Positions 4,768 to 61,374 of a stretch of DNA of 64,000 bases are shown here, one piece after another. Source of the stretch: an uncultured Spirochaetota bacterium (lineage in GTDB: Bacteria; Spirochaetota; Brevinematia; Brevinematales; JAOACQ01); contig CAVYGN010000001.1 of NCBI GenBank assembly GCA_963768055.1, positions 512,001-576,000 on the forward strand. Direction: 5' to 3'. The first letter of the stretch is position 1, and each line of letters opens with the position of its first letter. Made by a program: the position numbers and the translations under genes. The notes under the pieces are model-generated. The model did no database searches. It was not told where the DNA came from and saw nothing but the letters and a program-made list of their open reading frames with translations.

Positions 4768-4794
4768 CAATATTGGCGTTAATTTATCCATCCG

Positions 4795-18861: not shown

Positions 18862-19959
18862 ATGACGGATAATACAGTATCGATACTATGCTCCGGAGTC
18901 GCGCTCGGTGTGTATATACCCGCGCTTCTGACTGATTATCAATTGCGGGAGCTCGGCGTGAAAACCGAACTCCTGGTATTGGAGAACTTATTAAAAGAGG
19001 ATAAAAGGAAAATAATAAGGGAAAGCAAAAAGGCTTTCCACGGCAGTTTCAGGGTAGCTCTGGCGGGGCAGAAGATGGCCAGGGACTTAAAACCTAATTT
19101 TGATTCCAGGGCCGTTTATGATTTATTCAAGCTCTGGGATAAAGAAAACCGGAGGCGCTTCATTGTCTTTTCGGGTTTCTGGCTTTCAGTGTTAAAGGAG
19201 TACTGTGGAACGGCCGGTCAGGAAGGCTTATGTATCGAGATAGTCCATATGGACGCCGCCGTTTCGGCATCATGGAAACTCTTCATGGAAGAGAGCAAAG
19301 CCTTTAATAATATATGGATATTCGGCCGGAAGGGTAACAATCTGGCCTATGAAATACCGGTCGGGGGAAAAAAGCCCGAGGCATACGGGGAGAGGCCTGA
19401 CCGGTATGTTATACATGGCGGGGGCTGGGGGATGGGCACTTACCAGGGCAGGATCCCCGAACTTACAGACATGGGATTTAATCTTGATATTGTCGCATAT
19501 TACATAGAAGAGGCGCTGGAAAGGGTAAAGGGCAGAAGGTATTATATGGTGGACCCGGAATGGCAGCCATGGACGGAAAACAGTGAGGGCCGCTATGAAT
19601 TCCCGCCGTTCGGGGAGATCGGGGTAAATATAAATATATCATATAAAAACAAGACGGAATACCATGAACTCTTTGATGTGATAAGGAAGAGCAGGGCGGT
19701 AATTAGCAAGCCCGGGGGGGCGACCCTGATGGATTCTCTGGCTTCGGCCACGCCCTTGGTCATGCTTGAGCCGTTCGGTGATTATGAGAGGAAAAACTCC
19801 GAGTTGTGGGAAGGCCTGGGATACGGGATCCCGTACGAAAAATGGAAGAGTTCGGGATTTTCATCCGTGGTGCTGGAGAAACTGCATAAAAATCTTATGA
19901 AAGCCGGGGGGAAGCTGGTTAATTATCCCCGGGATTATTTCGAGAGGAATTTTAAATGA
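18862..19959 (+). CDS. GT-B fold glycosyltransferase (GT28-C-like)
   Basis: HGGGWGMG, ISKPGGATLMDS, PFGDYERKN (MurG/MGDG-synthase-like C-terminal motifs). Confidence 0.7.
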   Translation: MTDNTVSILCSGVALGVYIPALLTDYQLRELGVKTELLVLENLLKEDKRKIIRESKKAFHGSFRVALAGQKMARDLKPNFDSRAVYDLFKLWDKENRRRFIVFSGFWLSVLKEYCGTAGQEGLCIEIVHMDAAVSASWKLFMEESKAFNNIWIFGRKGNNLAYEIPVGGKKPEAYGERPDRYVIHGGGWGMGTYQGRIPELTDMGFNLDIVAYYIEEALERVKGRRYYMVDPEWQPWTENSEGRYEFPPFGEIGVNINISYKNKTEYHELFDVIRKSRAVISKPGGATLMDSLASATPLVMLEPFGDYERKNSELWEGLGYGIPYEKWKSSGFSSVVLEKLHKNLMKAGGKLVNYPRDYFERNFK

Positions 19960-19974
19960 AGACAGGAGAACCCG

Positions 19975-21147
19975 ATGCAGCCTGAAACAGAAGTAAAGTT
20001 CGACCGCGCGACATTTATGAGGATCAAAAGGACGATCCGGAATATGTCCATAGGAAAAAACAATCTAAAGAGGGACCCCGAGTTTGCTTTGCGCCTTCCC
20101 GATGAAGTAGGGATACAGCTGACAAACCGCTGCAATCTCAGGTGCAAACACTGCTTCCAGTGGAATGACACAGGCTTCCATAACCTCTTTGATGAAAGCG
20201 CCAGGAGCGGTGAACTGGATATAGATATCTTTAAAAAGATACTGGCCGAAACATCGGAAGTAAAATCGAACCTTTACCTCTGGGGGGGCGAGCCGTTGTG
20301 CTACAGCGAATGGGACAGGCTTTCTAACACCCTTGAAAAGGACCCGCGCTGGACGGTTTTATGCACCAACGGGATAGATATTGAAAAGAGGCTTGATCCA
20401 ATCATAAAAATATCCCCGGACCTGGCGATGCTTATCAGCCTGGACGGTTTCAGCGAGGAAAACGACTCTGTCAGGGGAAAGGGGACATACAGGAAAGTCA
20501 TTGACAATATCAGTCTGCTGATCGGGCTTAAAAAGAAAAATGTCTATAAGGGTGAACTTTCCGTTAATTGCGTGATAAGCGTCGCCATGGCCGGAAAGCT
20601 CTATGATTTCGCCGTGATGCTCGAGGAAATAGGGATCAACTCATTGTATTTCTGTTTTCCATGGTATATTTCCGGCAGCACATCGCTCAGGATGAACAGG
20701 TTCTTCAGGGAAAATTTCAGCTGGCTCCGCAGCCTGGATAAAACTCATCCCCCGAGCTGGCATTCCTACAGGTACAATCTTGACGCCGGGGTTCTTGATG
20801 AGCTGACGCAAGATCTTGATAGGATCGGTGGGCGGGTATGGAAGATGAGGCTCCGATACCAGCCGGCACTGGAAACCTGCGAGATAAAAGGGTTTATCAA
20901 CGGCAAAGAAAAACCGGCCCAGGGAAGGTCGCGATGCGTCGGCATTACAAACCGGATGAATGTAATGCCGGACGGAAGGGTTACGGTATGCAAGCTCTTT
21001 CCGGAATTCGAGATAGGAAACCTGAATAAAAACAGCGTAACCGGAATCTGGAACAGTCCCGATTTTAAAAAAGCAAGAGGTATCATCAGCCGGGGTCTGA
21101 TGCCGGTCTGCTCGAAATGCGTCCTTTTATACCTGCATGGAGTCTAA
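19975..21147 (+). CDS. Radical SAM/SPASM-twitch protein
   Basis: CNLRCKHC, WGGEP, SLDG, C..MPDGRVTVC..IGNL..IWNS..CSKC. Confidence 0.9.
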   Translation: MQPETEVKFDRATFMRIKRTIRNMSIGKNNLKRDPEFALRLPDEVGIQLTNRCNLRCKHCFQWNDTGFHNLFDESARSGELDIDIFKKILAETSEVKSNLYLWGGEPLCYSEWDRLSNTLEKDPRWTVLCTNGIDIEKRLDPIIKISPDLAMLISLDGFSEENDSVRGKGTYRKVIDNISLLIGLKKKNVYKGELSVNCVISVAMAGKLYDFAVMLEEIGINSLYFCFPWYISGSTSLRMNRFFRENFSWLRSLDKTHPPSWHSYRYNLDAGVLDELTQDLDRIGGRVWKMRLRYQPALETCEIKGFINGKEKPAQGRSRCVGITNRMNVMPDGRVTVCKLFPEFEIGNLNKNSVTGIWNSPDFKKARGIISRGLMPVCSKCVLLYLHGV

Positions 21148-21160
21148 GAGGAGATATGAT

Positions 21161-22309
21161 ATGAAGTTCAGTTTCGTAATTCCGACTTACAATAATAAGT
21201 ATCTTCTGAACAATACTCTTGAAGCCCTGAATAGCCAGATCTATCCTGGGTCGGGCGAGTATGAGGCTGTCGTAGTGGATGACGGCTCGACAGATGACAC
21301 GCATGATTATATAGAAGGGGTTAATAAAAATTACAGCCTGAAATATTATTACCTTGAGAGGGACAAAAATTCATGCCGTGCGAAGACAAGAAATAAAGGG
21401 TGGAAAAACGCGTCCGGGGAAATCATCGCATTTATAGATTCGGATATTTTAGTCAAACCCGACTATCTATATGAACTGAACAGGTGCTTTTCAATAAACC
21501 GGGATATTCTGGTGCTGGGTAACAGGCTGATGCTGGATAAGCCTGTAACCCCGTCGGAAGTCTCGTCGGGGGAAGTGTTCAAAAAATTCAATTTCGACAA
21601 AAACAAACTGAGCCTGCTTGAATACAGGTATTTTTTATATGAAACGACATCCTACAACGCCAATATGATCATGCTGCCATGGACGCAGGTGTACAGCTGC
21701 AACATGGCTGTCTCAAAGAAATGGCTGGAATCAGCCGGGGGATTCGATGAGAATTTTAAAAGCTGGGGAGTGGAGGATATCGAGCTGGGGTACGCGTTAT
21801 ACGAGAAAAAAGTCGGGATCGTGATCAACTCGAAACTGGAAGTCCTTCACCAGAATCATGGCGACCGCAACGACCTGATCATCAGCGAGGATAAAATCGC
21901 GGGTTACGACAGGAACCTTGAATACTTCTTTGACAAGCATCCGGACGCTGTAAAGATGAGGAAGAAATTCGCGTTCAAGTTCCTGAAGGGGGAAATCTCG
22001 GACGACAAAATGTTCATGGATAAGTCTGTAAATTATATCAAGGTGGATTTCAAAAATAAATACGAGCTCGAATTCATAAAAGACATTGTAATTAAAATGT
22101 CAACCGGGAAGAAGTACATACCGGTCATAAACGACTACAATGAAAAGACAGACCTTGATATCTGGCTTCAACATCAGTCCGGCGATGATTTACGGCGGGC
22201 AAAATATTACCCGATGTCAAAGCGCCTTGACAGGGACAAGATGATGCGATTCCTTAAAATCGAAAAGGAAAGGCAGAAACAGGCAGTCTCAAAGACAATT
22301 GAAAGATAG
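21161..22309 (+). CDS. Glycosyltransferase family 2
   Basis: VIPTYN, VDDGSTD, FIDSD, GGFDENF..WGVEDIELG; RBS GAGGAG before ATG 21161. Confidence 0.9.
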   Translation: MKFSFVIPTYNNKYLLNNTLEALNSQIYPGSGEYEAVVVDDGSTDDTHDYIEGVNKNYSLKYYYLERDKNSCRAKTRNKGWKNASGEIIAFIDSDILVKPDYLYELNRCFSINRDILVLGNRLMLDKPVTPSEVSSGEVFKKFNFDKNKLSLLEYRYFLYETTSYNANMIMLPWTQVYSCNMAVSKKWLESAGGFDENFKSWGVEDIELGYALYEKKVGIVINSKLEVLHQNHGDRNDLIISEDKIAGYDRNLEYFFDKHPDAVKMRKKFAFKFLKGEISDDKMFMDKSVNYIKVDFKNKYELEFIKDIVIKMSTGKKYIPVINDYNEKTDLDIWLQHQSGDDLRRAKYYPMSKRLDRDKMMRFLKIEKERQKQAVSKTIER

Positions 22310-22320
22310 GAAAGGTTTAT

Positions 22321-24099
22321 ATGAAGAATTCTGATTATTCCGAAGAAGCTGTTAAGGGAAAAAAATATTCGATAAAAGAAATGTTCGGAATATTCCTTCC
22401 CCAGTTCAGGAAATATATTAAACCTCACATTGGTCTTTTATTGCAGGCCGTATTTTGTCTTTTTATTTTAAACATGCTCTGGCTGATGCTTCCTTTTTTC
22501 CAAAAGCATTTTATAGATGACGGTCTGATAGGTAAGAATTTTGATCTTCTGCTTAAAATCGTTATCGCTATGATGTTAACTCAGCTTTTAACCGCAACAA
22601 TATTTACCATGTGGGAATATCTCTACAACTTTCTTTCGGGCAGGCTTTGTTATAATGTCGAAAAAGATCTGTATTTTCATATCCTCAAACTGCCCATGTC
22701 GTATTTTGACAGTCACAGGGCGGGAGAGCTTCTGAAAAGGGTGCTGGATTCTTTATCGCTCCTGAATATAATCAATATTTTTCTCTTTGATATACTCAAT
22801 AATTTTTTTGTCATTATCATAGGTATATCAGCCGGATTATTGATAAGCCCTATTCTCGTTTTAATCAGCTTGATCTTTATCCCTATTTCTCTGACAAACA
22901 ATCATTTCCAGGGAAAGGTTTCAAGGAAAAATGAAGAGGAAAGGTGGGATGTCGACAGGGCTTTAAACTCGGAGCAAACGGAAGCCCTGGTAGGCATCAG
23001 GACTATCAAGGCATTCGGAATAGAGTTAAAAGTTTACAGGAAGTATATGCTTTTAAGGCTTAAATACAGGCAGATAGAGTTTAAATTCAAAAGAAAATAT
23101 GTCGGCCTGAATATTGTGAATAATTTTTTTGGAAGCCTTGAAAATTTCCTCATTATGATAACCGCGGGTTTTTTAGTCATCGGAGGGAAATTGACAATAG
23201 GCGACTGGATGGCTTACCAGATAATCATTTCAAGGGTCACTACGCCCCTGAAACAGCTCATAGACGTCAATGTCAAACTGCAGACAAATATAGTTACCTT
23301 AAAACGTCTGGACGACCTGATCCAGGAGCAGGAAGAAAAGCATCTGATGAATAAAGACCTCAGATTGACAAAGGGGACTATTGTATTTAAAGATGTAAGT
23401 TTCAGCTACGCTAATAACAGCAATATATTAAGCGGAATAAACTTTAAAATTGATAAAGGGAAGTCCCTGGCGCTGGTGGGCAGAAGCGGTGTGGGAAAAT
23501 CCACACTGGCAAATCTTATCCTTAACTTTTACCTGCCGACTTCAGGGGAAATCCTGATAGATGATGTGAATATTAGGGAATATAATGTAAGAAACCTCCG
23601 GGATGATATTTCCATGGTCCTGCAGGACACCTACCTGTTTTCAGGGACAATAATGGATAATCTCAAACTCTGCTCGGCGTCAAAAGATTACAGCGAGATT
23701 GAAGAAGCCTGCAGGATAGCATACGCTCATGAATTTATAATCGATCTTCCGAAGGGGTATAATACCGAGGTAGGCGAGCGCGGGACGAAACTCTCGGGAG
23801 GCCAGAAACAGAGAGTGGCGCTGGCCCAGGCGATATTAAAAAAGCCGAAAATCCTTATTTTAGACGAGGCGACCAGTCATCTCGACATCGAGACCGAACA
23901 GAAAGTCCAGGAGGCGTTTCATTATTTAATTCAAAAAAGTACATCCATTATTATTGCCCATCGATTATCCACGATTAAAAATGCTAATATTATAGCGGTG
24001 CTTGAAGAAGGAAGAATAGTTGAAACGGGTACGCATGATGATTTAATAGAAAAAGATTCATATTATAAAAAAATGTATACCAGTTATCTCTCAATTTAA
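22321..24099 (+). CDS. ABC exporter, fused TMD-NBD (no C39 peptidase)
   Basis: TM helices, GRSGVGKS, LSGGQKQR, ILDEATS, AHRLST. Confidence 0.93.
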   Translation: MKNSDYSEEAVKGKKYSIKEMFGIFLPQFRKYIKPHIGLLLQAVFCLFILNMLWLMLPFFQKHFIDDGLIGKNFDLLLKIVIAMMLTQLLTATIFTMWEYLYNFLSGRLCYNVEKDLYFHILKLPMSYFDSHRAGELLKRVLDSLSLLNIINIFLFDILNNFFVIIIGISAGLLISPILVLISLIFIPISLTNNHFQGKVSRKNEEERWDVDRALNSEQTEALVGIRTIKAFGIELKVYRKYMLLRLKYRQIEFKFKRKYVGLNIVNNFFGSLENFLIMITAGFLVIGGKLTIGDWMAYQIIISRVTTPLKQLIDVNVKLQTNIVTLKRLDDLIQEQEEKHLMNKDLRLTKGTIVFKDVSFSYANNSNILSGINFKIDKGKSLALVGRSGVGKSTLANLILNFYLPTSGEILIDDVNIREYNVRNLRDDISMVLQDTYLFSGTIMDNLKLCSASKDYSEIEEACRIAYAHEFIIDLPKGYNTEVGERGTKLSGGQKQRVALAQAILKKPKILILDEATSHLDIETEQKVQEAFHYLIQKSTSIIIAHRLSTIKNANIIAVLEEGRIVETGTHDDLIEKDSYYKKMYTSYLSI

Positions 24100-24112
24100 G
24101 AGGGAAATTATT

Positions 24113-25105
24113 ATGAAGAGAGAACCATTAAAATACCTTAAAGTGATTTTCATAACCGTTATTCTGCTTTTCATCACGGTTTTAACAACTTTTATTCTGA
24201 TCAACAGTATTGATTATGTTGAAGTACGGGGAGAGATCAAACCCCTGGAATTCCAGGACATCACGCCTAAAATATCGGGTATTATTAAGAAATGTTATTT
24301 TAAGGACGGCGATCCTGTCAATGCCGGAAACTTAGTCCTGGAAATGGATTCTAAAGAATACAAGCTTTCGCTGGCTTCTCTCAGCAGCAAAAGAGAATTA
24401 CTGCTTTCCAGGAACAATTTTCTGAAATCCGACATGGAATTATTTTTGATGGAGAGGTCGCTTTTTTTAAATAAATTAAAAAAGGATCTGAATGATCTGA
24501 ATATTAAAAAAAACAATGAGATGATCTCACAAAAAGAATATGACAATGAAATTTACAAACTCGAGGTAGAGGAACTTTCGGGACGTGAAAGATTATTGAC
24601 GTTTGAAAATGATCTGAAGCAATCGGCCAGGGAGATGGATTCTATTTCAGCGGATATTGACACTATTAAAGACAAAATTGACAAATGCAGGGTCGAATCT
24701 CAAATTGACGGCATCATTGTAGACGAAGACAGCAGGATCAAGGAGGGGATATACTATAATTCCGGTGAAATAATTCAAAAGATATTTGGCAACAACTCAG
24801 TCTACGCGGAAGTCTATATTCCGGACAGGAAGGTGATTAAGGTCGAGATCAACCAGAAGGTGAAATTATTTGTAGATGCTATACCTTACAGTAAATATAG
24901 AACATTTGAAGGGAGGCTTGTGAGCCTGAAAGAAACAAAAACAAGGAACCGGACTGAAGGTTATATTGGTAAAGTTTTAATTGATGACCCGTTTTTTAAA
25001 ATAAGAAATATTAACGATGTGCAGACTAAAAAATTGTTTTTCGGGTTAAAACTTAACGCACGCATATATACCGGGAAATGCGGCTTCCTTGATTTTTTAT
25101 ATTAA
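24113..25105 (+). CDS. HlyD-family periplasmic adaptor
   Basis: N-terminal TM, lipoyl-like motif ISGIIK..KDGDPVNAG, coiled coil, SQIDG, PYSKY..FEG. Confidence 0.85.
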   Translation: MKREPLKYLKVIFITVILLFITVLTTFILINSIDYVEVRGEIKPLEFQDITPKISGIIKKCYFKDGDPVNAGNLVLEMDSKEYKLSLASLSSKRELLLSRNNFLKSDMELFLMERSLFLNKLKKDLNDLNIKKNNEMISQKEYDNEIYKLEVEELSGRERLLTFENDLKQSAREMDSISADIDTIKDKIDKCRVESQIDGIIVDEDSRIKEGIYYNSGEIIQKIFGNNSVYAEVYIPDRKVIKVEINQKVKLFVDAIPYSKYRTFEGRLVSLKETKTRNRTEGYIGKVLIDDPFFKIRNINDVQTKKLFFGLKLNARIYTGKCGFLDFLY

Positions 25106-25114
25106 AAGGATTTT

Positions 25115-26464
25115 ATGAGAAGGTTGAAATTAAGTATTATCATCATGATCATTTTCTTTCCCTGTGCTTTCTTCGCATTAGATCTAGAATCAGCTGTTTT
25201 AATGGCCTTAACGAACAGGGAGGATCTGTCTATTATTTCCAATCAAATAATTCTGCAGAAAAAAACAATAGAAAGCAAATTTCATGCCTTATCGCCAGCC
25301 TTTTCACTCGATCTCGGCTACAGCCAGGCGTATTATTCGAATAGTCAAATTTACTCTAACGATCTGAACTCCGGAGTTTCAATGAACTACCCCATTTATG
25401 ACGGCGGATTAAAAAATATTGAAGTGGAGGAGGAAAATGACCGTCTGAAGCTCATGGAACTGGAATACAGGATGAGAAATTCTGATGTTATATGCAGGGT
25501 GAAAAGTTATTTTTACGATATTATTCTCTATCAAACCTTGCTTGAATTGCGTAAAAAAAACCTGGAGCAGTCTCTCCTTGAAAAAAAAAATGCAGAGATT
25601 TTATTTAAGCAAAAGCTTATTGATCCGCTTGCATATAAGTCAGCCGGATATTATTCCGCAGTTTCTGAATTCCAGCTTAAACAGGCACTTAACGAGCTTG
25701 AAGAAAAAAAGGATTTCCTTAAGAATTACATCCTTTATTCCAATTTTGATAAGCTGGAGGGCAATTTACAGCAGGATGAAAGTTTTGACCTTTCTAACAA
25801 GCTGCTAGTGGACTACCGGATCGCCTATCTTCAGATTCAAAAAGAAATGATCAATCTATATTATAAAAAAACAATTGCCTCGCGGGGCTGGAAAATCGAT
25901 CTCTATTCGAGCCTTTACTGGGATTCTCTCCAATCTGATTCGCTGGGCAACTATCCGTATAATTCGGGATTTCAGAATCAGCTTATGCTTGAATTAGGAA
26001 TAAAGGCATATTTCCCGATTTCTGATGACATGTCTCTATCGGTCAAGCCGGGATCGGCTTATTCTCCCGAATTATTCTATAACGGTTTTTCGGCGAAAGG
26101 GTCCCTTCATCTTATGGATGAAAACAACTCCTTCCTTGACAGTCGGAAAGGTTATTGGAATTCAAAAAAGCAAGAGGTGGACTTGGATTACGAAATCAGG
26201 GATCTGGAATCCAAAAGAAATCAGACTCAGGATAAGCTCCAGGAATTAAAACTGGACATTTTCGCTTCTTCAAATAACATGGAATTATCATTAATGAATT
26301 ATGAAAACGTTGAGATACAATATTCGAATAACGGTAAGACCGCCAAAGAGCTGCTGGATGCAAAAATACAGAAAATAGAATCCGAGGTCAGCAATCTTCG
26401 CGCGATTTATAATTATAACTGCCTGGTCTGGAAGGCCCAGTCATTTTATTGGGCGGGGGATTGA
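25115..26464 (+). CDS. TolC-family outer membrane channel
   Basis: Signal peptide, LDLESAVLMAL, NYPIYDGG, ELLDAK; follows ABC + HlyD. Confidence 0.8.
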   Translation: MRRLKLSIIIMIIFFPCAFFALDLESAVLMALTNREDLSIISNQIILQKKTIESKFHALSPAFSLDLGYSQAYYSNSQIYSNDLNSGVSMNYPIYDGGLKNIEVEEENDRLKLMELEYRMRNSDVICRVKSYFYDIILYQTLLELRKKNLEQSLLEKKNAEILFKQKLIDPLAYKSAGYYSAVSEFQLKQALNELEEKKDFLKNYILYSNFDKLEGNLQQDESFDLSNKLLVDYRIAYLQIQKEMINLYYKKTIASRGWKIDLYSSLYWDSLQSDSLGNYPYNSGFQNQLMLELGIKAYFPISDDMSLSVKPGSAYSPELFYNGFSAKGSLHLMDENNSFLDSRKGYWNSKKQEVDLDYEIRDLESKRNQTQDKLQELKLDIFASSNNMELSLMNYENVEIQYSNNGKTAKELLDAKIQKIESEVSNLRAIYNYNCLVWKAQSFYWAGD

Positions 26465-26469
26465 AAATA

Positions 26470-27018
26470 TATGGAGGTAAGCATGGCTGAGATATCAGGC
26501 GGAATGATCACATATTTTGGTAAAGAAAATGATGTAAAGGCATATGTTTCAAGACGGGCCGGGGAAACTTTCAAACCTGCCCTTGTAATCGCCCATGAAA
26601 TATGGGGGCTTAACGGGCATGTCAAGGACCTGGCCGATCAATTCGCTAGACAGGGCTTCACAGTAATCGCTCCCGATCTTTACTCTTCTTCAGCCTTCGA
26701 CGGGATACTGACCGGGCAGGAAATACAATGCTTGCTGGATTTCTCATCGTCGCTGGTCCGTGACAGATTGGCCGTCCCGTCTTACTTGAGTAATGAAATA
26801 TCAAAACTTCCCGGGGAAAAGAGGGGTATGATTCGGAGAATAATCCGGATTTTCAGCGGCGGCATACCCAAATATAAATTACTTTGCGAGCTGTCAAAAG
26901 CGGCGGCTCATCTCGGATCATGGAAATACGCTGCCGCCGGTAAAATCAGGCTGATAAACGTTACACCCGCCGGTTCATACCCGGCATTGATATCATTTGA
27001 GGATTTGGAATTGTTTTA
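26470..27018 (+). repeat. 549-bp direct repeat, identical by eye to 29862-30410
   Basis: Line-by-line comparison found no mismatch; offset 3392 bp. Confidence 0.85.
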
Positions 27019-28144
27019 TAATATCCGTTATGAAGAAAAAAACGCACAGGTGGATTATTTAAACGCGCGAAATCCGATAACACCCGAGCTTCTTGGGCTT
27101 GTAAGAAAGGGAGGAGAAAGGCTCTACTGCACTATCCCCTTCAAGAATCTGGACCTAAATGCTGACGGAATAAATTGCTGCTGCTGGATATTAGATCTGG
27201 AAGAATTCAACAATGTTTCACTGGAAGAGGGGAATGATCTCGCAAAAGCATGGAAGAGCGAGGCCTTTCAAAGGGTCCGCGAATCGATCCGGGACGGTTC
27301 ATATAAGCATTGCCGGCTGGACTGCTGCCCCCTTGCAAGGGGGGAGAGGACAAACCTATTGACCCTTAATGAAATGCGGAACTCTCATCCTGAAATCGCT
27401 GATTTTATTGAAGGCAAAGATCTTGAGTATTCCGGTATGCCGAGTTTTGTCCATATTGCCGTAGATACTACATGCAACCTCAAGTGCCCCTCGTGCAACT
27501 GGTTTCTTCTTCCGAAAATTCCAGGCGGGATTAGATCCGGTATTATTAATTCACTCAAGACTGTCAATAAAGATTTAGAAATAATTTATCTTGCCGGCAT
27601 GGGCGAGCCTTTTTTCAGTCCCGTATATCTTGACTGGATGATGAATTTCCGCAAGGAAGATTTTCCGGCCCTCAAAAAAATAGAAATCAACACAAACGGC
27701 CTGAAGCTGACCCCGGCCCTATGGGAGAAATTACCCGCCGATTTGAAAAGCCTTATCAACACTTTTACCGTATCGATTGACGGGGCAACGGCGGCGACAT
27801 ACGAGAAAAACAGGCCGGGGGGATCTTTCAAAACGCTTCTGGAAAATCTGGCCTTTTTCAAGGAATTGCGCGACGGCGGAAATATCGGGTATCTCAGGGC
27901 GTACTTTGCCTATCAGGAGAATAATTACGGGGAGATGCCGGAAATGATAGAATTGGCGCGCTCTTTCTCATTCGATCTGGTCTTCTTTGAAAGACTGAGG
28001 AATTGGGGGACCTATAAACCCGCGTCATACCGGCGGCGCGATATAGGCAATCCGGAGCACCCCGGCTATAAGTCTTTTCAAACAGTTAAAGATATGATAA
28101 ATAAAATGACCGGTCAGGGCCCGAGGGTCATTTTCACAATTTGA
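26483..28144 (+). CDS. Dienelactone-hydrolase-fragment / twitch radical SAM fusion, copy 1
   Basis: HEIWGLN..APDLY (DLH N-terminal half), YCTIPF..CCC..AWKS..CRLDCCP, CNLKCPSC, GMGEPF, SIDGA. Confidence 0.8.
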   Translation: MAEISGGMITYFGKENDVKAYVSRRAGETFKPALVIAHEIWGLNGHVKDLADQFARQGFTVIAPDLYSSSAFDGILTGQEIQCLLDFSSSLVRDRLAVPSYLSNEISKLPGEKRGMIRRIIRIFSGGIPKYKLLCELSKAAAHLGSWKYAAAGKIRLINVTPAGSYPALISFEDLELFYNIRYEEKNAQVDYLNARNPITPELLGLVRKGGERLYCTIPFKNLDLNADGINCCCWILDLEEFNNVSLEEGNDLAKAWKSEAFQRVRESIRDGSYKHCRLDCCPLARGERTNLLTLNEMRNSHPEIADFIEGKDLEYSGMPSFVHIAVDTTCNLKCPSCNWFLLPKIPGGIRSGIINSLKTVNKDLEIIYLAGMGEPFFSPVYLDWMMNFRKEDFPALKKIEINTNGLKLTPALWEKLPADLKSLINTFTVSIDGATAATYEKNRPGGSFKTLLENLAFFKELRDGGNIGYLRAYFAYQENNYGEMPEMIELARSFSFDLVFFERLRNWGTYKPASYRRRDIGNPEHPGYKSFQTVKDMINKMTGQGPRVIFTI

Positions 28145-28166
28145 GTTGTTTATATAGGCGGTAATT

Positions 28167-29843
28167 ATGGCAAAGATATCCCGTGCAATGATAACATATT
28201 CCGGTAAAGAAAATGATGTAAAGGCATATGTTTCAAGACAGGCCGGGGAAACTTTCAAACCTGCCCTTGTAATCGCCCATGAAATATGGGGGCTTAACGG
28301 GCATGTCAAGGACCTGGCCGATCAATTCGCGAGGCAGGGCTTCACAGCAATAGTTCCCGATCTTTACTCTTCTTCAGCCTTCGACGGGATACTGACCGGG
28401 CAGGAAATACAATGCTTGCTGGATTTCTCATCGTCGCTGGTCCGTGACAGATTGGCCGTCCCGTCTTACTTGAGTAATGAAATATCAAAACTTCCCGGGG
28501 AAAAGAGGGATATAATTCGGAGAATAATCCGGATTTTCAGCAGCGGCGGCATACCCAAACATAAATTACTTTGCGAGCTGTCAAAAGCGGCAACTCATCT
28601 CAGTGCACTGAAATACGCTGCCGCCGGTAAAATCAGGCTGATAAATGTTACACCCGCCGGTTCATACCCGGCCTTGATATCGCCCGGGGATATTGAAATG
28701 TTTTATAGTATCCGCTATGAAGACAGGCATAAAAATGATCAGGAGGAATTATTGAAAGATTTAAACCCGATAACGGCGGAACTGCTCAGTCTTGTAAGAA
28801 AAGGGGAAGAAAAGCTCTACTGCGCTTTTCCCTTTACAAATCTTCACCTCACATCGATTGGAATAAATTGCTGCTGCTGGATTTGGGATATCGAAGGATA
28901 TAACAATATTTCACCGGAAGAGGGGAATGATCTCGCAAAAGCATGGAAGAGCGAGGCCTTTCAGAGGGTCCGTGAATCGATCCGGGACGGTTCATATAAG
29001 CATTGCCGGCTGGACTGCTGCCCCTTTGTCAGGGGGGAGAGGACAAACCTATCGACCCTTAATGAAATGCGGAACTCTCATCCTGAAATCGCTGATTTTA
29101 TTGAAGGCAAAGTTCTTGAGTATTCCGGTATGCCGAGTTTCATCAATATCTCCTTAGACACCGCGTGCAACCTCAAGTGCCCCTCGTGCAACCGGCTTCT
29201 TCTTCCGAAAATACCTTGCGGAACCAAGACTGTAATTATCAATTCACTTAAAACCGTCAATATAAATTTAAAAAAAATATTTCTTGCCGGTATGGGCGAG
29301 CCTTTTTTCAGCCCCGTATATATGGACTGGATGATGAATTTCCGCAGAGAGGATTTTCCAGCCCTCAAAGAAATAGGCATCAATACAAACGGCCTGAAGC
29401 TGACCCCGGCCCTGTGGAAGAAATTACCCGCCGATTTGAAAAGCCTTATCAACTCTCTCACCGTATCGATTGACGGGGCGACAGCGGCGACATACGAGAA
29501 AAACAGGCCGGGGGGATCTTTCAAAACGCTTCTGGAAAACCTGGCCTTTTTCAAGGAATTGCGCGACGGCGGAAATATCGGGCATCTCGGGGCGTATTTT
29601 GCCTATCAGAAGAACAATTACAGGGAGACACTGGAAATGATAGAATTGGCGCGCTCTTTCTCATTCGATCTGGTCTTTTTTGAAAGACTTAAGAATTGGG
29701 GGGCGTACGAACCCGCGTCATACCGGCGGCGCGATATAGGCAATCCAGAGCACCCCGGACATCAAGATTTTCAAGCGGTCAAAAAAAGAATAAATGATTA
29801 TAATAAGATCCATTCAATCCCCCAGATCGTTTTTATGAGCTGA
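28167..29843 (+). CDS. DLH-fragment / radical SAM fusion, copy 2
   Basis: Same architecture as copy 1; CNLKCPSC. Confidence 0.8.
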   Translation: MAKISRAMITYSGKENDVKAYVSRQAGETFKPALVIAHEIWGLNGHVKDLADQFARQGFTAIVPDLYSSSAFDGILTGQEIQCLLDFSSSLVRDRLAVPSYLSNEISKLPGEKRDIIRRIIRIFSSGGIPKHKLLCELSKAATHLSALKYAAAGKIRLINVTPAGSYPALISPGDIEMFYSIRYEDRHKNDQEELLKDLNPITAELLSLVRKGEEKLYCAFPFTNLHLTSIGINCCCWIWDIEGYNNISPEEGNDLAKAWKSEAFQRVRESIRDGSYKHCRLDCCPFVRGERTNLSTLNEMRNSHPEIADFIEGKVLEYSGMPSFINISLDTACNLKCPSCNRLLLPKIPCGTKTVIINSLKTVNINLKKIFLAGMGEPFFSPVYMDWMMNFRREDFPALKEIGINTNGLKLTPALWKKLPADLKSLINSLTVSIDGATAATYEKNRPGGSFKTLLENLAFFKELRDGGNIGHLGAYFAYQKNNYRETLEMIELARSFSFDLVFFERLKNWGAYEPASYRRRDIGNPEHPGHQDFQAVKKRINDYNKIHSIPQIVFMS

Positions 29844-29874
29844 TTTATTGTCTTTGCTGTTTATGGAGGTAAGC

Positions 29875-31545
29875 ATGGCTGAGATATCAGGCGGAATGAT
29901 CACATATTTTGGTAAAGAAAATGATGTAAAGGCATATGTTTCAAGACGGGCCGGGGAAACTTTCAAACCTGCCCTTGTAATCGCCCATGAAATATGGGGG
30001 CTTAACGGGCATGTCAAGGACCTGGCCGATCAATTCGCTAGACAGGGCTTCACAGTAATCGCTCCCGATCTTTACTCTTCTTCAGCCTTCGACGGGATAC
30101 TGACCGGGCAGGAAATACAATGCTTGCTGGATTTCTCATCGTCGCTGGTCCGTGACAGATTGGCCGTCCCGTCTTACTTGAGTAATGAAATATCAAAACT
30201 TCCCGGGGAAAAGAGGGGTATGATTCGGAGAATAATCCGGATTTTCAGCGGCGGCATACCCAAATATAAATTACTTTGCGAGCTGTCAAAAGCGGCGGCT
30301 CATCTCGGATCATGGAAATACGCTGCCGCCGGTAAAATCAGGCTGATAAACGTTACACCCGCCGGTTCATACCCGGCATTGATATCATTTGAGGATTTGG
30401 AATTGTTTTACATTATACGAAATGAAGAAAATAAAAATATTAAAGGCAGAGAAGCGTTTTTGAAAGATTTAAACCCGATAACGGCGGAACTGCTCAGTCT
30501 TGTAAGAAAAGGGGAAGAAAAGCTCTACTGCACTTTTCCCTTTACAAATCTTCACATCACCTCTAATGGAATTTATTGCTGCAGCTGGTTACTGGGAGTG
30601 GAAGGATTTAACAATGTTTCACTGGAAGAGGGGAATGATCTCGCAAAAGCATGGAAGAGCGAGGCATGTCAAAGGGTCCGTGAATCGATCAGGGACGGTT
30701 CATATAAGCATTGCCGGCTGGACTGCTGCCCCTTTGTCAGGGGGGAGAGGACAAACTTATTGACGCTTAATGAAATGCGTAACCATTATCCTGAAATCGC
30801 GGATTTCATTGAAGGCAAAGTTCTTCAGTATCTAAAAATGCCGAGTTTTGTCAATATCTCCTTAGACACCGCGTGCAACCTCAAGTGCCCTTCGTGCAAC
30901 CGGCTTCTTCTTCCGAAAATACCCTTCAGGGCCAAATCAGGTATTATTAATTCACTCAAAACCATTAATAAAGATTTGAAAATAATCTTTATAGCCGGAA
31001 TGGGCGAGCCTTTTTTCAGTCCCGTATATCTTGACTGGATGATGAATTTCCGCAGGGAGGATTTTCCAGCCCTTAAAGAAATAGAAATCAAAACAAACGG
31101 CCTGAAACTGATCCCGGCCCTATGGGAGAAATTACCCGCCGATTTGAGAAGCATTGTCAACTGGTTCACAGTATCGATTGACGGGGCGACAGCGGCGACA
31201 TACGAGAAAAACAGGCCGGGGGGATCTTTCAAAACGCTTCTGGAAAATCTGGCCTTTTTCAAGGAATTGCGCGACAGCGGAAGCATAGGGCGTCTCAAGG
31301 CGTACTATACGTATCAGCTGAACAATTACGGAGAGATGCCGGAAATGATAGAATTGGCAAAACGGTTCTCATTCGATCTTGTCTTCTTTGAAAGACTGAG
31401 GAATTGGGGGGCCTACAAACCCGCGTCATACCGGCGGCGCGATATAGGCAATCCGGAGCACCCCGGCTATAAGTCTTTTCAAACAGTTAAAGATATGATA
31501 AATAAAATGACCGGCCAGGGCCCGAAGATAATATTTACCAATTAA
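29875..31545 (+). CDS. DLH-fragment / radical SAM fusion, copy 3
   Basis: Same architecture; RBS GGAGGT before ATG 29875. Confidence 0.8.
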   Translation: MAEISGGMITYFGKENDVKAYVSRRAGETFKPALVIAHEIWGLNGHVKDLADQFARQGFTVIAPDLYSSSAFDGILTGQEIQCLLDFSSSLVRDRLAVPSYLSNEISKLPGEKRGMIRRIIRIFSGGIPKYKLLCELSKAAAHLGSWKYAAAGKIRLINVTPAGSYPALISFEDLELFYIIRNEENKNIKGREAFLKDLNPITAELLSLVRKGEEKLYCTFPFTNLHITSNGIYCCSWLLGVEGFNNVSLEEGNDLAKAWKSEACQRVRESIRDGSYKHCRLDCCPFVRGERTNLLTLNEMRNHYPEIADFIEGKVLQYLKMPSFVNISLDTACNLKCPSCNRLLLPKIPFRAKSGIINSLKTINKDLKIIFIAGMGEPFFSPVYLDWMMNFRREDFPALKEIEIKTNGLKLIPALWEKLPADLRSIVNWFTVSIDGATAATYEKNRPGGSFKTLLENLAFFKELRDSGSIGRLKAYYTYQLNNYGEMPEMIELAKRFSFDLVFFERLRNWGAYKPASYRRRDIGNPEHPGYKSFQTVKDMINKMTGQGPKIIFTN

Positions 31546-31561: not shown

Positions 31562-34477
31562 ATGAAATACAGTTTTGTGATTCCAACCTTCAATAATAAA
31601 ATATTGTTAAAGAACACGCTTGAAGCGCTGAATTATCAGCCGGGTTACGGCCATTATGAAGTGATAGTCGTTGACGACGGATCATCGGATGACACATATA
31701 AATACATCAAAGGAACGGCCCGGAATTATAATCTAAAATATTATTATCTTGAACGCTGCAGGGATTCCTGCAGGGCCAGGACAAGAAATCATGGATGGAA
31801 AAACGCCGAAGGCGAAATCATCGCTTTCATCGATTCCGATATCATTGTAAAACCGGATTATCTCTCTGAGCTGGACAGGTGTTTTTCAATGGGCAGGGAT
31901 ATTATCGTCATCGGCAACAGGCTTTTACTCAACGATCAGACAGCTTACCTGGATGTAGCTAGCGGTGATATTTTCAAAAAATACCGTTTCGATGGTAATC
32001 TTGATATTCTAGAGTTCAGATACCTGATTTTTCAATTCATGTCTTTTAACGCCGGTTCAATCAACCGGCCCTGGACGCAGGTTTACAGCTGCAACATGGC
32101 GCTTCCTAAAAAATGGCTTGAAAAGACAGGCGGATTCGACGAGAATTTTAAGGGCTGGGGAGTCGAGGATATCGACTTCGGATATTCAATGTTCAGGCAA
32201 AATGTTAAAATTATTATCAGTTCGAAGCTGGAGGTATTGCATCAATTTCATGGGGTCAGGAATGACCTTATTATAAGCAATGAAAACATCGGGAGATATA
32301 ATGAGAATATCAAATATTTCCTGACAAAATATCCGGAAGCGCTCGGGATGTCCAAAGAAAAGGCATATAAATTTTTAAGAGGGGAGGAATCGGAAGACGC
32401 GGCGCCTGAAATCCCGGGATTGAAGTATATCGGTATAGATTTCAGGGAAAAAAAGAGCCTGAAAAGCCTGAAAAAACTGATTTTGAATTCCATGAAAAAA
32501 AAGAATGAGATTGTAGTCGTTAACGATTATGTCGAGGATACAGATCTGGATATCTGGCTTCAGCATTTAGAAGGAAATGTAAATTCTGCCGCCAGATATT
32601 TTCCGATGTCCAAAAGGATCGATATAGAAACCGCAGTGGAATACTTGAAAAATGAAAAGGAAAGGCAGAGGAAAGCCGAGGTTTTAAAAACCGAGGATAC
32701 CCTCCTGCAGAAAATGTACGGGAATGGATGGGAGAGGAGAGTGATCGGCAAGGCCGATCCGATACCAGGCCGTGAAAATTCCCGCTATTCCTGGGTAAAA
32801 ACAAATGTATTTGGTAAGAAAATACTGGAAATAGGATGCTCGTCTGGTTACGGCACGAAATATTTAAAATACATTGGCGGGCTTGATTATTTGGGCATTG
32901 ACTATGACAGGGCTGTTATAGGGTTAGCAGTGAAGGAATTCGGGGAAGAGGGTAAAATCCGCTTTGAAAACCATGATATTCATGAATACCTGTCATACAT
33001 GGAAGCGAACAAAATAAGATACGACACGATAATAGCCCTGGAGATATTGGAACATATTGCTGACGGGTTGGAATTAGCCCAAAAATTAAAGAAATTCTGC
33101 GGCAGGCTGCTGATAAGTATGCCTTACAAAGAAAAGGAGGGATACTGGGGCTGTTACCATCTTATTCATGGCATTGAAGAAACCGATCTGAAGGGCTTTC
33201 ATATTGTTTTTCTGCATGACGACGGAACTCTTTCCGACAGGCCAAGCGGTTCTGAAAGTGATTTAATGCTGGCATCCTGGAAAAAGCAGGATAATAATAT
33301 CAAAATCAAGATTTACGCCGGGCTGGTTTGCCCGAGACGGTCGATCGATTACAAAAAATTGGAAATATACTTCCGTATGAACGGCTGTTATGTTACAGAG
33401 AAACCGGAAGATGCCACTCATATTATCCTTGTTACATGCGGTTTTATAGACAGAAATATCCGGGAATCTTTTGAACTGATCAATATATTGAGAAAATATC
33501 CCGGCAAATTAATTGTAGCCGGCTGCCTCTATGATATTATCAGGGAAAAAGTTACGGATCAATTTGACGGCAGCATACTGACTACCAAACATATGGAGAA
33601 GATAGATGAATTATTCCCTGATTTTGTTTATAAGTGGAAAGATATTCCCGACGCGAACTCTATGCATAATTATGAAGAGATTAACAAGCTGATCGGCAAT
33701 AAGAAAGAAATGACAGAAGAGTTTTTTTACGACAGGAACAAATTCGAGGATTGGGAACATAATTTCCTTATCCGGATAGGGGAAGGCTGTAATTTCAACT
33801 GCACATATTGTTCCCATATAAAGGCTATAGGAAGGCTGCATAGTAAAAGCATGGATGAATGTATCAGGGAATTTAAACTCGGCTACCGGCTCGAGTACAG
33901 GCTTTTCAGGATCACATCAATGGATATCGGGAGTTATGGAACTGATATTAACCTGACGTTTCCGTTTTTATTGAACCGGATGTTATCGGAGGCGGAAGAC
34001 ACCATATTCGTTCTGGAAGATATTAATCCTGTCTGGCTGTTAAAATATGAGAAAGAACTATTGCCGATAATAGAGAGGAAAAGAATTAAAATGATCCAGC
34101 TCCCCACACAGTCCGGAAGCTTGAGAATACTGGAGAAAATGCGGAGATGGCATGATGTTGACAAGCTTATAAAATTATTAAAATCAATAAAAAAAGCCGA
34201 TCCGGATATCCTGTTAGCAACCGAGATCATTATCGGGTTTCCGACAGAAACCAGCCATGATTTTGAAGAAACTTTGAAGTTTTTAAAGCTTGCGCAATTC
34301 AGTTTTTCTTATATTTATCCATATTACGAAAATGAGTATATCGAATCCTATAAAATAACCCCGAAATGTGATAAGAAAACAATTGAAGAAAGGCTGGAAA
34401 AGGCAAAATCATTCTGCGGGAAAAACCGGATAAGCTATTCGATAATGCTTAATAATAATGAAGGAGTTAACAAATGA
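31562..34477 (+). CDS. Triple fusion: GT2 + class I MTase + MiaB/RimO-like methylthiotransferase-type radical SAM
   Basis: VDDGSSD/FIDSD; ILEIGCSSGYG/ALEILEH; UPF0004-like C.RR..D, VTCGF, VAGCL; GCNFNCTYC, QSGS.RIL..MRR, IIIGFPTET; no TRAM domain. Confidence 0.8.
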   Translation: MKYSFVIPTFNNKILLKNTLEALNYQPGYGHYEVIVVDDGSSDDTYKYIKGTARNYNLKYYYLERCRDSCRARTRNHGWKNAEGEIIAFIDSDIIVKPDYLSELDRCFSMGRDIIVIGNRLLLNDQTAYLDVASGDIFKKYRFDGNLDILEFRYLIFQFMSFNAGSINRPWTQVYSCNMALPKKWLEKTGGFDENFKGWGVEDIDFGYSMFRQNVKIIISSKLEVLHQFHGVRNDLIISNENIGRYNENIKYFLTKYPEALGMSKEKAYKFLRGEESEDAAPEIPGLKYIGIDFREKKSLKSLKKLILNSMKKKNEIVVVNDYVEDTDLDIWLQHLEGNVNSAARYFPMSKRIDIETAVEYLKNEKERQRKAEVLKTEDTLLQKMYGNGWERRVIGKADPIPGRENSRYSWVKTNVFGKKILEIGCSSGYGTKYLKYIGGLDYLGIDYDRAVIGLAVKEFGEEGKIRFENHDIHEYLSYMEANKIRYDTIIALEILEHIADGLELAQKLKKFCGRLLISMPYKEKEGYWGCYHLIHGIEETDLKGFHIVFLHDDGTLSDRPSGSESDLMLASWKKQDNNIKIKIYAGLVCPRRSIDYKKLEIYFRMNGCYVTEKPEDATHIILVTCGFIDRNIRESFELINILRKYPGKLIVAGCLYDIIREKVTDQFDGSILTTKHMEKIDELFPDFVYKWKDIPDANSMHNYEEINKLIGNKKEMTEEFFYDRNKFEDWEHNFLIRIGEGCNFNCTYCSHIKAIGRLHSKSMDECIREFKLGYRLEYRLFRITSMDIGSYGTDINLTFPFLLNRMLSEAEDTIFVLEDINPVWLLKYEKELLPIIERKRIKMIQLPTQSGSLRILEKMRRWHDVDKLIKLLKSIKKADPDILLATEIIIGFPTETSHDFEETLKFLKLAQFSFSYIYPYYENEYIESYKITPKCDKKTIEERLEKAKSFCGKNRISYSIMLNNNEGVNK

Positions 34478-34758
34478 GTTCGAGGAAAACGATCGGAGTA
34501 AGTATTAGTAAAAGTTACTTTATCGCCTATATTGAATCGGACGGCATTCATAAAATAACGAGGTACCCCGATAATAAAAATGGTATTAATAGTTTTTTGG
34601 ATGAACTGGATGACAATACGGTTATCGGGATAGAAAGACGCGGCCGGTCCGGCGCTTTTATTAAATCGATCAAGCATCTGATAAAAGAATATATATTGCT
34701 TTGTCATGAAGATTTTATTACTTTTATCAGCCTTACAGACAAAGAAATTAACGAATAG
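34474..34758 (+). pseudogene. IS110-family transposase N-terminal remnant
   Basis: IGVSISK..YPDNKNGI..VIGIERRG resembles IS110 GIDxSK..FxNxxxG..VxxExTG; only 94 aa, first catalytic Asp replaced. Confidence 0.5.
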
Positions 34759-34769
34759 GAGAAGGAGAA

Positions 34770-35471
34770 ATGAAGAATTATGTTTTAATTTTAATCGCGA
34801 TGTTTACAATTAATCCGCTTTTTACTAAGCCGGTTTATTCAGAAGACAAAGACATTAAACTTGAAGATCATCAATCAAGCCTTAATGTGGATTTGATAAC
34901 TGTTCTTCAAAATCGTAAATCGACACGGGGGTTTACCGATAGGGAAATATCATTGAAAGATCTGTCCACAATCCTATGGGCAGCAAATGGGATCAATCGT
35001 TATGATGGAAAAAGAACTGCTCCTTCACTTATGGGCATATATTTTATCCAGATCTATGTAACATCTTCCAATGGAACCTATCACTATGATCCGCCAAGCT
35101 CAACACTGAAATTCTTTTCAGATAAGGACTTAAGAGGGATTCTTGGCCGTCATAGTGTCGGCGGTATGTATGACATTCCAAAAGCAAGCTATGTTCTGAT
35201 TTTGACGGCCAGACTTTATATGGCGCCTATATCGGAACCTTACGGTATTGATAAAGTCAGCAGGATAAATTATGCACACTCTACAGCCGGCTGCATAGCG
35301 GAAAATGTATATATTACTGCTGCTGCCCTTGGAATCGGAACACGAATTGCCGCAAATATCAATTTCAAAGAAATTATTGAAGAATTGAGGCTTGGCGAGG
35401 ATGAAATCCCGCTCTACATAATGCCTCTTGGTTATCCGAATGCATCCGGGTCAGATCATCTATTTAAATAA
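34770..35471 (+). CDS. Nitroreductase (SagB/ThcOx-like) with signal peptide
   Basis: RKSTRGF, LSTILWAANG, RTAPS, GCIAENVY..AAALGIGT, IMPLGYP; hydrophobic N-terminus. Confidence 0.85.
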   Translation: MKNYVLILIAMFTINPLFTKPVYSEDKDIKLEDHQSSLNVDLITVLQNRKSTRGFTDREISLKDLSTILWAANGINRYDGKRTAPSLMGIYFIQIYVTSSNGTYHYDPPSSTLKFFSDKDLRGILGRHSVGGMYDIPKASYVLILTARLYMAPISEPYGIDKVSRINYAHSTAGCIAENVYITAAALGIGTRIAANINFKEIIEELRLGEDEIPLYIMPLGYPNASGSDHLFK

Positions 35472-52583: not shown

Positions 52584-52597
52584 TATGGTTATTCAGT

Positions 52598-52667
52598 AAA
52601 GTAATATATAATTTTTCTTATTTTACTTTGGGCAGATAAAGTAAAATATGAAATGTCTTAATTTACT
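52598..52667. promoter_or_regulatory. Two tandem palindromic operator-like sites upstream of fic
   Basis: AAAGTAA..TTACT inverted repeats at 52598-52629 and 52638-52667, 40-bp period. Confidence 0.5.
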
Positions 52668-52679
52668 CGGGAGCGGTTT

Positions 52680-53810: not shown

Positions 53811-53939
53811 TTGGGAAGCTTTAATGCGAGAGAGGAAGGATTGAAATGGGTAAAATATCGGAATTTTTACACATACCCGGCGGCAAATTGGTAAATAACA
53901 GCAGTTTTTACCCCGTTTTGCACTATCGAGGGTGCCGGT

Positions 53940-55118: not shown

Positions 55119-55165
55119 TTTGTAATATGGTTGATTAGTTATTTCATTAAAAAGGAGTTTTACCG

Positions 55166-55516: not shown

Positions 55517-55525
55517 GGGAAAAAG

Positions 55526-61051: not shown

Positions 61052-61055
61052 ACCT

Positions 61056-61373: not shown

Positions 61374-61374
61374 A

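Follow-up and report, generated by a model that had tools for sequence, protein, structure and literature searches.

Tandem radical SAM genes homogenised by gene conversion around a twitch/beta-1 cassette that appears to be protected

Introduction

How can two members of a tandem gene array be identical over more than 500 bp at one end, and yet be diverged to saturation at synonymous sites immediately downstream? This puzzle is posed by three adjacent radical SAM genes at positions 26,470 to 31,545 of a 64,000-nucleotide stretch of DNA from an uncultured Spirochaetota bacterium (assembly GCA_963768055.1, contig CAVYGN010000001.1, positions 512,001 to 576,000 of the forward strand; hereafter the window). 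An earlier note on this DNA attributed the pattern to recombination or gene conversion, acting together with selection on the substrate pocket to give a variable array of tailoring enzymes. We find gene conversion among the tandem copies to be well supported, while the data fit an array of maintained, differentiated paralogs and not a generator of diversity. Our preferred reading, to which we assign a probability of roughly 70%, is concerted evolution around a protected cassette, comprising the first half of the twitch domain and barrel strand beta-1, that would set specificity in enzymes acting on sugars.

Results

The three genes, here called c1, c2 and c3, are same-strand tandem paralogs, with open reading frames (ORFs) of 557, 558 and 565 aa that contain no stops or frameshifts; spacers of 22 nt (c1/c2) and 19 nt (c2/c3) separate them, and a direct-repeat search recovers three-copy families across the whole unit at a spacing of 1684-1708 bp. 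Features are on the forward strand unless marked minus. On the evidence of the ORF list, Pfam matches and upstream sequence, c1 occupies 26471..28144 and carries what we call a type-A twitch cassette; its true start is probably the ATG at 26483, which follows GGAGGT. The most derived copy is c2 (28167..29843), whose twitch hairpin is a hybrid. Type B is represented by c3 (29863..31545; ORF list, Pfam and diagnostic sites), which is open from a TTG at 29848 and probably starts at the ATG at 29875. The database gene calls for c1 (P0001), c2 and c3 (P0002) are 553, 558 and 556 aa. Each gene also contains an antisense ORF (91 aa in c1, 158 aa in c2 and 157 aa in c3, at 27586-27861, 29078-29554 and 30825-31298, minus), the three resembling one another; they recur because the underlying DNA repeats, and we take them to be spurious. 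In each protein, a dienelactone-hydrolase (DLH) remnant is followed by an N-terminal twitch domain resembling that of BtrN, and then by a CX3CX2C radical SAM core.

Exact-match extension reproduces the 549-bp identity at the 5' ends of c1 and c3 that the earlier note had reported, placing it at 26470..27018 in c1 and 29862..30410 in c3. The tract spans the ribosome-binding site, the start codon and the entire DLH-remnant N-domain of c1, beginning 1 nt before the first ATG and 13 nt before the second, which is the database start; upstream of it the DNA of the two copies is unrelated (an efflux gene precedes c1, the end of c2 precedes c3). This identity is not simple conservation, because c1 and c2 differ at 35 positions over the same 183 codons: synonymous divergence (dS) there is 0 for c1-c3 and 0.119 for c1-c2, and by our arithmetic the chance of finding zero differences at the c1-c2 divergence is ∼1e-16.

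Over the full length of the genes, c3 alternates between its two neighbours. In a gap-free codon alignment it agrees with c1 against c2 at 115 sites and with c2 against c1 at 75 sites, and these sites are clustered: 37 c1-like sites form one run (nt 18-572), c2-like sites form runs of 19 and 10 (nt 603-703) and of 12 (nt 994-1066), and 31 further c1-like sites form a run at nt 1558-1672. The nucleotide alignment of 1692 columns has 79 sites at which only c3 is different, and another 19 at which no two of the copies agree. We applied a maximum-descent permutation statistic in the style of 3SEQ to the codon alignment; the value for c3 is 41, equalled in 0 of 20000 permutations, and c2 is also mosaic (2/20000 and 26/20000). 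The 31 consecutive c1-like sites at the 3' end enclose an exact match of 98 bp (28016..28113 in c1, 31417-31514 in c3), while an exact c2/c3 match of 72 bp lies inside the twitch cassette (28752-28823 and 30460-30531). The claim that c3 is c2-like in its middle and c1-like again at its 3' end is thus borne out, and both LKDLNPITAELLSLVRKGEEKLYC and NISLDTACNL, quoted in its support, are present in the c2 and c3 translations.

The c1-c3 synonymous divergence changes abruptly along the genes: by the Nei-Gojobori method, dS is 0 over aa 1-183, 1.22 over aa 184-262, 0.31 over aa 263-325, 0.44 over aa 326-420, 0.25 over aa 421-520 and 0.21 in the tail. A range from 0 to 1.22 within one gene pair implies repeated recombination between copies. 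The significant mosaic, this spread of dS and a similar picture in a second genome all uphold the proposal of recombination or gene conversion. Divergence of c1 from c3 peaks in the N-terminal twitch segment (dS 1.2) and not in a barrel strand. GC content at third codon positions (GC3) is lowest within the triplet genes in this unconverted cassette (0.36-0.45, versus 0.49-0.59 in the converted parts), a dip that may reflect GC-biased conversion or mixed origin; amino-acid content confounds the comparison.

What distinguishes the cassette becomes clear from comparison with that second genome. A word-indexed search returned 46 proteins at E≤0.001 among 7997 scored candidates, and both the N-domain and the radical SAM part occur together in only five of them: c1-c3, P0004 (69%) and P0005 (66%). 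The last two share one 2.74-Mb contig, and over the range of lengths searched the second genome shows two copies. Among the five full-length proteins, grouping follows the genome in all segments but alignment columns 191-262. In those columns, identity is 73% for c1-P0004 and 76% for c3-P0005, against 63% for c1-c3 and 66% for P0004-P0005. Outside this twitch segment, P0004 and P0005 are 94% identical over columns 331-420 and 100% identical over columns 421-563; the two copies of the second genome are homogenised at their C-terminal end, a different place than in the array here.

Phylogenetic tests point the same way. With three outgroups, the twitch-segment tree joins c3 and P0005 in a clade with support of 97/95, and the approximately unbiased (AU) test rejects both P0004+P0005 (p = 0.0077) and c1+c2+c3 (p = 0.0044). 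For the rest of the protein, again with three outgroups, the tree joins P0004 and P0005 (99/99), and the alternative groupings c1+P0004 (p = 3.8e-62) and c3+P0005 (p = 1.3e-9) fail the AU test. A supported mosaic is therefore combined with paralogs that are closer within a genome than orthologs are between genomes (identities and AU tests), the combination by which we recognise concerted evolution.

On the strength of the identities, tree and AU tests, the cassette of c1 at 27038..27232 (aa 186-250 of P0001) is of type A; it comprises a linker helix and the first half of the twitch domain with the putative ligands Cys216 and Cys233. The corresponding cassettes are a B/A hybrid in c2 (28725..28925) and type B in c3 (30430..30633, within which lies the 72-bp tract identical to c2). 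P0004 and P0005 differ at 25 sites in aa 186-262; of these, c1 carries the A state at 14 and the B state at 2, c3 carries A at 3 and B at 15, and c2 has 7 A, 5 B and 13 neither; the c2 hairpin has a type-B first half (HLTS) and a type-A second half (GINCCCWI.D). The same two types extend to barrel strand beta-1, before the cluster loop (FVHIA in c1 at 27446..27460, FINIS/FVNIS in c2 and c3 at 29139-29153 and 30847-30861): H.AVD is found in c1 and P0004, NIS.D in c2, c3 and P0005, and the c1-private beta-1 residues 324, 326 and 327 are common to the second genome. Residue 234, directly after Cys233 (27179-27184 in c1, 30580-30585 in c3), is Cys in c1, c2 and P0004 and Ser in c3 and P0005; 80% of 85 distant relatives have Cys here, and the type change adjoins the presumed auxiliary cluster. 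Of the 54 residues private to c2, which also has a divergent tail, 8 are common to the second genome. The single-copy neighbour of the array, a 971-aa fusion, is 79% identical between the genomes (P0208). Because the two types are only 63-66% identical, the A/B split is older than the split between the genomes.

To what extent has selection shaped these differences? The ratio of nonsynonymous to synonymous divergence (dN/dS) is 0.15-0.53 over all segments and pairs. By partition, the 36 barrel-strand codons give 0.35-0.46, the remaining core 0.24-0.35 and the twitch hairpin 0.15-0.61, the maximum of 0.61 coming from the c2-c3 comparison; strand dN is 0.15-0.19 versus 0.07-0.13 in the rest of the core, and cassette dS is saturated at 1.2-1.5. 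No positive selection was found among the three copies by segment and partition dN/dS. The overall range of 0.15-0.61 indicates purifying selection and no diversifying signal. In addition, of the 50 positions conserved to 80% or more in the 85 distant relatives, all three copies retain 47; deviations at 375, 386 and 476 are common to c1-c3, and c3 also deviates at 234, so that it retains 46/50. Because conserved positions are retained and dN/dS is below 1, all copies look functional and constrained.

The distribution of variable residues was examined on an AlphaFold2 model. Within aa 186-553, 28 of 62 strand residues vary, compared with 78 of 306 others (Fisher p = 0.003), an enrichment of ∼1.8-fold in predicted strands; for the six barrel strands the counts are 16/36 versus 49/200 in the rest of the core (p = 0.024). 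The variable sites are hypervariable in the family as a whole (mean entropy 3.03 versus 2.26 bits, p = 2.6e-10), and when the strand excess is evaluated at family-variable positions only, p is 0.009, 0.059 and 0.062 at entropy cut-offs of 2.0, 2.5 and 3.0. Variable sites alternate along beta-3 (399, 401, 403) and beta-5 (470, 472), which by barrel-strand geometry places them on one face; since these residues are polar, we infer that the face may be the barrel interior. All the strand peptides quoted in the earlier note are present (HIAVD/NISLD; EIIYLAG/KKIFLAG/KIIFIAG; IEINT/IGINT/IEIKT; TFTVS/SLTVS/WFTVS; YLRAYF/HLGAYF/RLKAYY). Its statement that differences fall in beta-strands therefore survives as a modest enrichment, with the highest divergence located in the twitch segment instead. 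Its further proposal, that selection is making a variable array, is not supported as it stands: dN/dS is below 1 everywhere, and the strongest differences are those between two old types found in both genomes.

The domain order of the proteins was established from profile and structure comparisons. The Pfam DLH family (PF01738) matches residues ∼20-75 at 39-40 bits (39.3 for c1; gathering score 21 bits), and this match, like the likeness of the array N-domain to the family generally, is confined to the start of the profile, covering only positions 2-54 of 217. DLH chains in the PDB (e.g. 1DIN, 9BLD) match query residues 32-78, at most 7-102. The nucleophile and the remaining triad of DLH presumably sit in the part that has no similarity to c1-c3. 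Inspection by eye of aa 1-190 in the five-protein alignment revealed no Gly-x-Ser/Cys-x-Gly motif, and c1-c3 do not have a complete alpha/beta-hydrolase domain with its triad; the N-domain is most likely a non-catalytic remnant, to judge from its sequence. With the N-domain alone (190 aa) as query, a search of near-length proteins gave 0 of 130 candidates at E≤0.001, and phmmer matched only the five array proteins among 207 fetched proteins; an Atlas match of the N-domain to DLH clusters (0.88) has the standing of a lead. The AlphaFold2 model (mean pLDDT 81.6) is helical after about residue 78 at low confidence, with pLDDT <50 for residues 1-46 and most of 142-185; from aa 190 the means of 10-residue blocks are 83-99, and pLDDT exceeds 90 for most of aa 200-553.

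A profile built from 90 family members aligns the Cys-rich region to residues 181-259 of BtrN, in its twitch domain (E = 3.9e-11), and the core to BtrN residues 19-126, as well as to viperins, SkfB, MoaA and NifB. Four cysteines (C216, C233, C277, C282) that precede the CX3CX2C motif are conserved across the family alignment and are compatible, as a sequence pattern, with one auxiliary [4Fe-4S] cluster; C277 and C282, invariant in 90/90 aligned members, lie in CRLDCC (27311..27328 in c1, 29004-29021 in c2, 30712-30729 in c3). The radical SAM motif itself, CNLKCPSC (27473..27496, 29166-29189 and 30874-30897), contains C331, C335 and C338, which are invariant in 90/90 aligned relatives. Scores against Pfam Radical_SAM (PF04055; cut-off 29.5 bits) are 28.3 for c1, 37.7 for c2 and 34.7 for c3. 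The AlphaFold2 model contains six alternating strands and helices, the partial (beta/alpha)6 barrel of the superfamily, and Foldseek returns viperin, SuiB, SkfB, DesII, BlsE and NifB at probability 1.00. A phage link of the core, raised by Atlas radical SAM clusters that are common in phages (0.98), was set aside when tblastn against a phage collection gave no match.

The closest named family is NF033640 (N_Twi_rSAM), in which a twitch-like, Cys-rich domain likewise precedes a CX3CX2C core. Among NCBIfam models it ranks first or second for c1-c3, and 89/90 aligned family members match it. However, c1, c2 and c3 score 70.0, 60.7 and 65.6 bits against a cut-off of 170, which is why we do not file them as members, and they carry an extra 185-aa N-terminal DLH remnant. 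A literature search at title level gave no known reaction for NF033640 members or for the c1-c3 group. From their sequences, the array proteins are probably better described as a rare, uncharacterised clade of N-twitch radical SAM enzymes. The wider group is large: representatives recovered by an exhaustive profile search number 19267 at E≤0.001 and 1273 at E≤1e-30, and fusions to other domains are numerous, with FkbM methyltransferase, GT2 and LysM as fusion partners among the relatives examined.

The triplet sits in a co-directional block from 8426 to 35471 that contains nine radical SAM domains in all. The block opens with an NF033640 radical SAM gene (8426-9646; 311.8 bits versus the cut-off of 170), then two further radical SAM genes flanking a carrier protein, and a weak ATP-grasp gene, and next two proteins with MftM-like methyltransferase ends, a GT2 gene, an unassigned gene and a radical SAM/SPASM gene. 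A stand-alone GT2 (21137-22309) precedes an MsbA/HlyB-like ABC exporter, an HlyD-like adaptor and an outer-membrane efflux protein (OEP), which together span 22321..26464 (Pfam, NCBIfam). Downstream of c3, the 971-aa fusion (31562..34477) joins GT2, a class I SAM methyltransferase and a MiaB/RimO-like radical SAM methylthiotransferase (UPF0004 + Radical_SAM); its ortholog P0208 is encoded on the contig that carries P0004 and P0005. The block ends with a 94-aa ORF that has no family match (34474-34758) and a nitroreductase-family protein (34770-35471) with a sub-threshold SagB-type match (43.7 versus 78.4 bits). The N-terminus of the latter is hydrophobic and signal-like, which is odd in a cytoplasmic flavoenzyme. 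Over 375 aa, the stand-alone GT2 shares 59% identity with the N-terminal part of the fusion (31562-32750), and this duplicated module brackets the exporter genes and the triplet. GC3 is patchy over the region, at 0.58-0.61 in 18862-22309, ∼0.51 in the triplet and 0.34-0.47 elsewhere.

Four distant loci were recovered when genome contigs were searched with the family-alignment profile, two of which (L003, L004) are short partial matches; neither the genome of the window nor that of P0004 and P0005 was among those recovered. At L001, the neighbours are two GT2 genes, a PIG-L deacetylase and a second radical SAM gene (5666-7348, minus), whose SPASM domain at aa 166-229 lies ahead of Radical_SAM at aa 275-402. 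At L002, an FkbM fusion is accompanied by two GT7-like genes, a carbamoyltransferase, a polysaccharide deacetylase and another family member, of 569 aa (4702-6411, minus). Several copies per locus may be common in the N-twitch radical SAM group.

No precursor-peptide gene was seen in the packed cluster around the triplet, an absence that, being based on annotation, is weak evidence; the only small ORFs are the 122-aa carrier protein and the 94-aa ORF, gaps between genes are small, and no small ORF is rich in Cys or Gly. Because the related loci are of glycan type and a precursor candidate is wanting, we favour a sugar or glycoconjugate as the substrate, and consider it about twice as likely as a peptide. 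A tailoring role, as the earlier note proposed, is suggested by the gene context.

In the window as a whole, we found no tRNA genes and no Rfam matches, and promoter-like (29 versus 27.2) and terminator-like (9 versus 12.4) sites did not exceed shuffled expectation; two terminator-like matches inside c1 and c2, on the AGMGEPFF codons, are probably due to chance. A Type I restriction-modification locus occupies 51036-58695, with a Fic-domain gene (52680-53810) between hsdM and hsdS. The C-terminal domain of its hsdR is split, a 932-aa ORF ending at position 208/329 and a 105-aa ORF (58378-58695) containing 231-328, and the gene may be broken or frameshifted. A row of genes for a CDP-alcohol phosphatidyltransferase, a radical SAM/SPASM protein and a cytidylyltransferase-family protein (60476-63674, minus) may form a set for lipid head-group modification.

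Discussion

The results above support the transfer of parts of these genes between tandem copies, while one internal segment retains two types that are common to two genomes. The sequence of events that we propose is as follows. At least two paralogs, of types A and B and differing in the first half of the twitch domain and in beta-1, would predate the split from the only known relative. Recombination between the tandem copies, by non-reciprocal gene conversion, would then have repeatedly overwritten the remaining parts of the gene, recurrently and independently in both genomes, and a single unequal crossover possibly created the middle copy. The N-domain and most of the barrel would thereby have become genome-specific and the twitch/beta-1 cassette have stayed type-specific, with all copies remaining under purifying selection. 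The cassette would adjoin the active site and set substrate or site preference, so that c1-c3 would run related radical reactions on different sugars, or different positions, of a glycoconjugate that the GT2 transferases would build and the ABC/HlyD/OEP pump would export.

The order of the array, A (c1), hybrid (c2), B (c3), is what an unequal crossover between B and A would leave. A simple crossover origin of c2 is opposed by its type-B beta-1 and its status as the most derived copy, and later conversions would be needed; the unequal-crossover origin of the third copy is accordingly speculative.

It is instructive to compare the array with known systems. BtrN (PDB 4M7T), the dehydrogenase of butirosin biosynthesis, has a C-terminal twitch domain with a four-Cys auxiliary [4Fe-4S] cluster and oxidises an aminocyclitol (PMC9012708). 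The array proteins likewise have four conserved twitch cysteines; in contrast to BtrN, their twitch is N-terminal, a permuted order, and identity between BtrN and the array family is low, the whole-protein E being only 3.9e-11 even with a profile. From the gene context, a carbohydrate-type substrate as in BtrN is plausible. Concerted evolution of bacterial paralogs by gene conversion is widespread in general, and has been noted for biosynthetic clusters in PMC9205934, which cites Santoyo and Romero 2005. Our array resembles such cases in its within-genome likeness, exact tracts and significant mosaic, and differs in that an internal cassette escapes homogenisation in two genomes, and cross-species types are kept. 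A literature search of titles and abstract openings gave no prior report of a tandem radical SAM array with a protected cassette, or of this architecture.

Several points weigh against our preferred reading. At 65 columns the twitch segment is short, and its support falls to 45/88 and 62/97 when eight outgroups, long branches among them, are used; the AU p-values are post hoc, because the groups were named after the identity table had been seen. The comparison with the second genome is one of proteins only. The middle copy stands outside a clean A/B scheme, its hairpin being hybrid and yet its beta-1 type B. Proximity of the cassette to the active site is suggested by analogy with BtrN and by strand position, while the Foldseek matches are to generic radical SAM cores, with TM ∼0.3 of the query. 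There is no characterised close homolog of c1-c3, NF033640 being the nearest at 60.7-70 versus 170 bits, and the chemistry and substrate are guesses, for which the nearest analogy is a BtrN-like two-electron oxidation or epimerisation. Finally, persistence of the cassette could be passive, divergence itself blocking recombination.

Among the alternatives, the one that fares best is that the enzymes are maturases of peptides made on the ribosome and modified after translation (RiPPs), in which case the cassette would recognise different precursor peptides or residues. Sub-threshold matches to the peptide maturase models WgkB, StsB and mycofactocin radical SAM speak for it, as do SuiB and SkfB among the Foldseek matches, and the nearby HlyB-like ABC exporter with HlyD and OEP and the SagB-like nitroreductase domain (43.7 versus 78.4 bits). 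We nevertheless regard this explanation as doubtful: the tightly packed cluster holds no plausible precursor gene, the ABC protein has no peptidase domain, the two related loci that were examined point to glycans, as do the fusion partners, and the twitch match is to a sugar-type enzyme, BtrN.

The passive persistence raised above can be taken further, to neutral concerted evolution alone, with redundant copies kept for dosage and a cassette too divergent to recombine. Gene conversion requires long identical stretches. The saturated dS of the cassette and the shortness of the exact matches within it are what such an account would lead one to expect. Against it, two genomes with ∼79% identity at the neighbouring gene both keep the two types intact, dN/dS between A and B being 0.15-0.16, and a redundant copy would be expected to decay or disappear over such a time. 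Nor is the cassette inaccessible to conversion, because c2 and c3 share their 72-bp exact match there. We consider this explanation improbable, somewhat more so than peptide maturation.

Less probable again is diversifying selection on pocket residues, fed by recombination and making an array of variable specificity. The strand and barrel-strand enrichment, the placement of variable residues at family-hypervariable positions, their same-face alternation in beta-3 and beta-5, the raised strand dN and the hybrid hairpin of c2 would all suit it. However, dN/dS stays below 1 in every partition, with site models powerless for three sequences; the largest differences are old and common to another genome, and the strand excess weakens at family-variable positions.

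Finally, an assembly artefact, whether a chimera of strains or a mis-joined repeat, is very improbable: exact repeats of >500 bp lying 3.4 kb apart are hard for short-read assemblers, but the three ORFs are intact and distinct, the tracts alternate many times instead of switching once, the source contig is 1.8 Mb long, and an independent genome with two copies shows the same kind of homogenisation.

If concerted evolution around a protected cassette is the correct reading, the array has several implications. Because conversion has erased most differences between the copies, it leaves a short list of candidate specificity determinants: the first half of the twitch domain, beta-1 and a few same-face strand residues. 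Such a list would be of use for the N-twitch radical SAM enzymes, a large group (1273 representative clusters at E≤1e-30) that has no known reaction. The triplet also marks a large glycosylation and export cluster with nine radical SAM domains, and would provide a clean bacterial example of concerted evolution in which a protected internal cassette has lasted across a genome split. A bolder and rather unlikely extension is that the array is a natural cassette-shuffling system, with c2 a living A/B hybrid, in which recombination between the copies would move or splice twitch/beta-1 cassettes and so yield new sugar-modifying specificities; were this true, cassette shuffling would be a metabolic analogue of antigenic-variation cassettes, varying an exported or surface glycoconjugate between strains.

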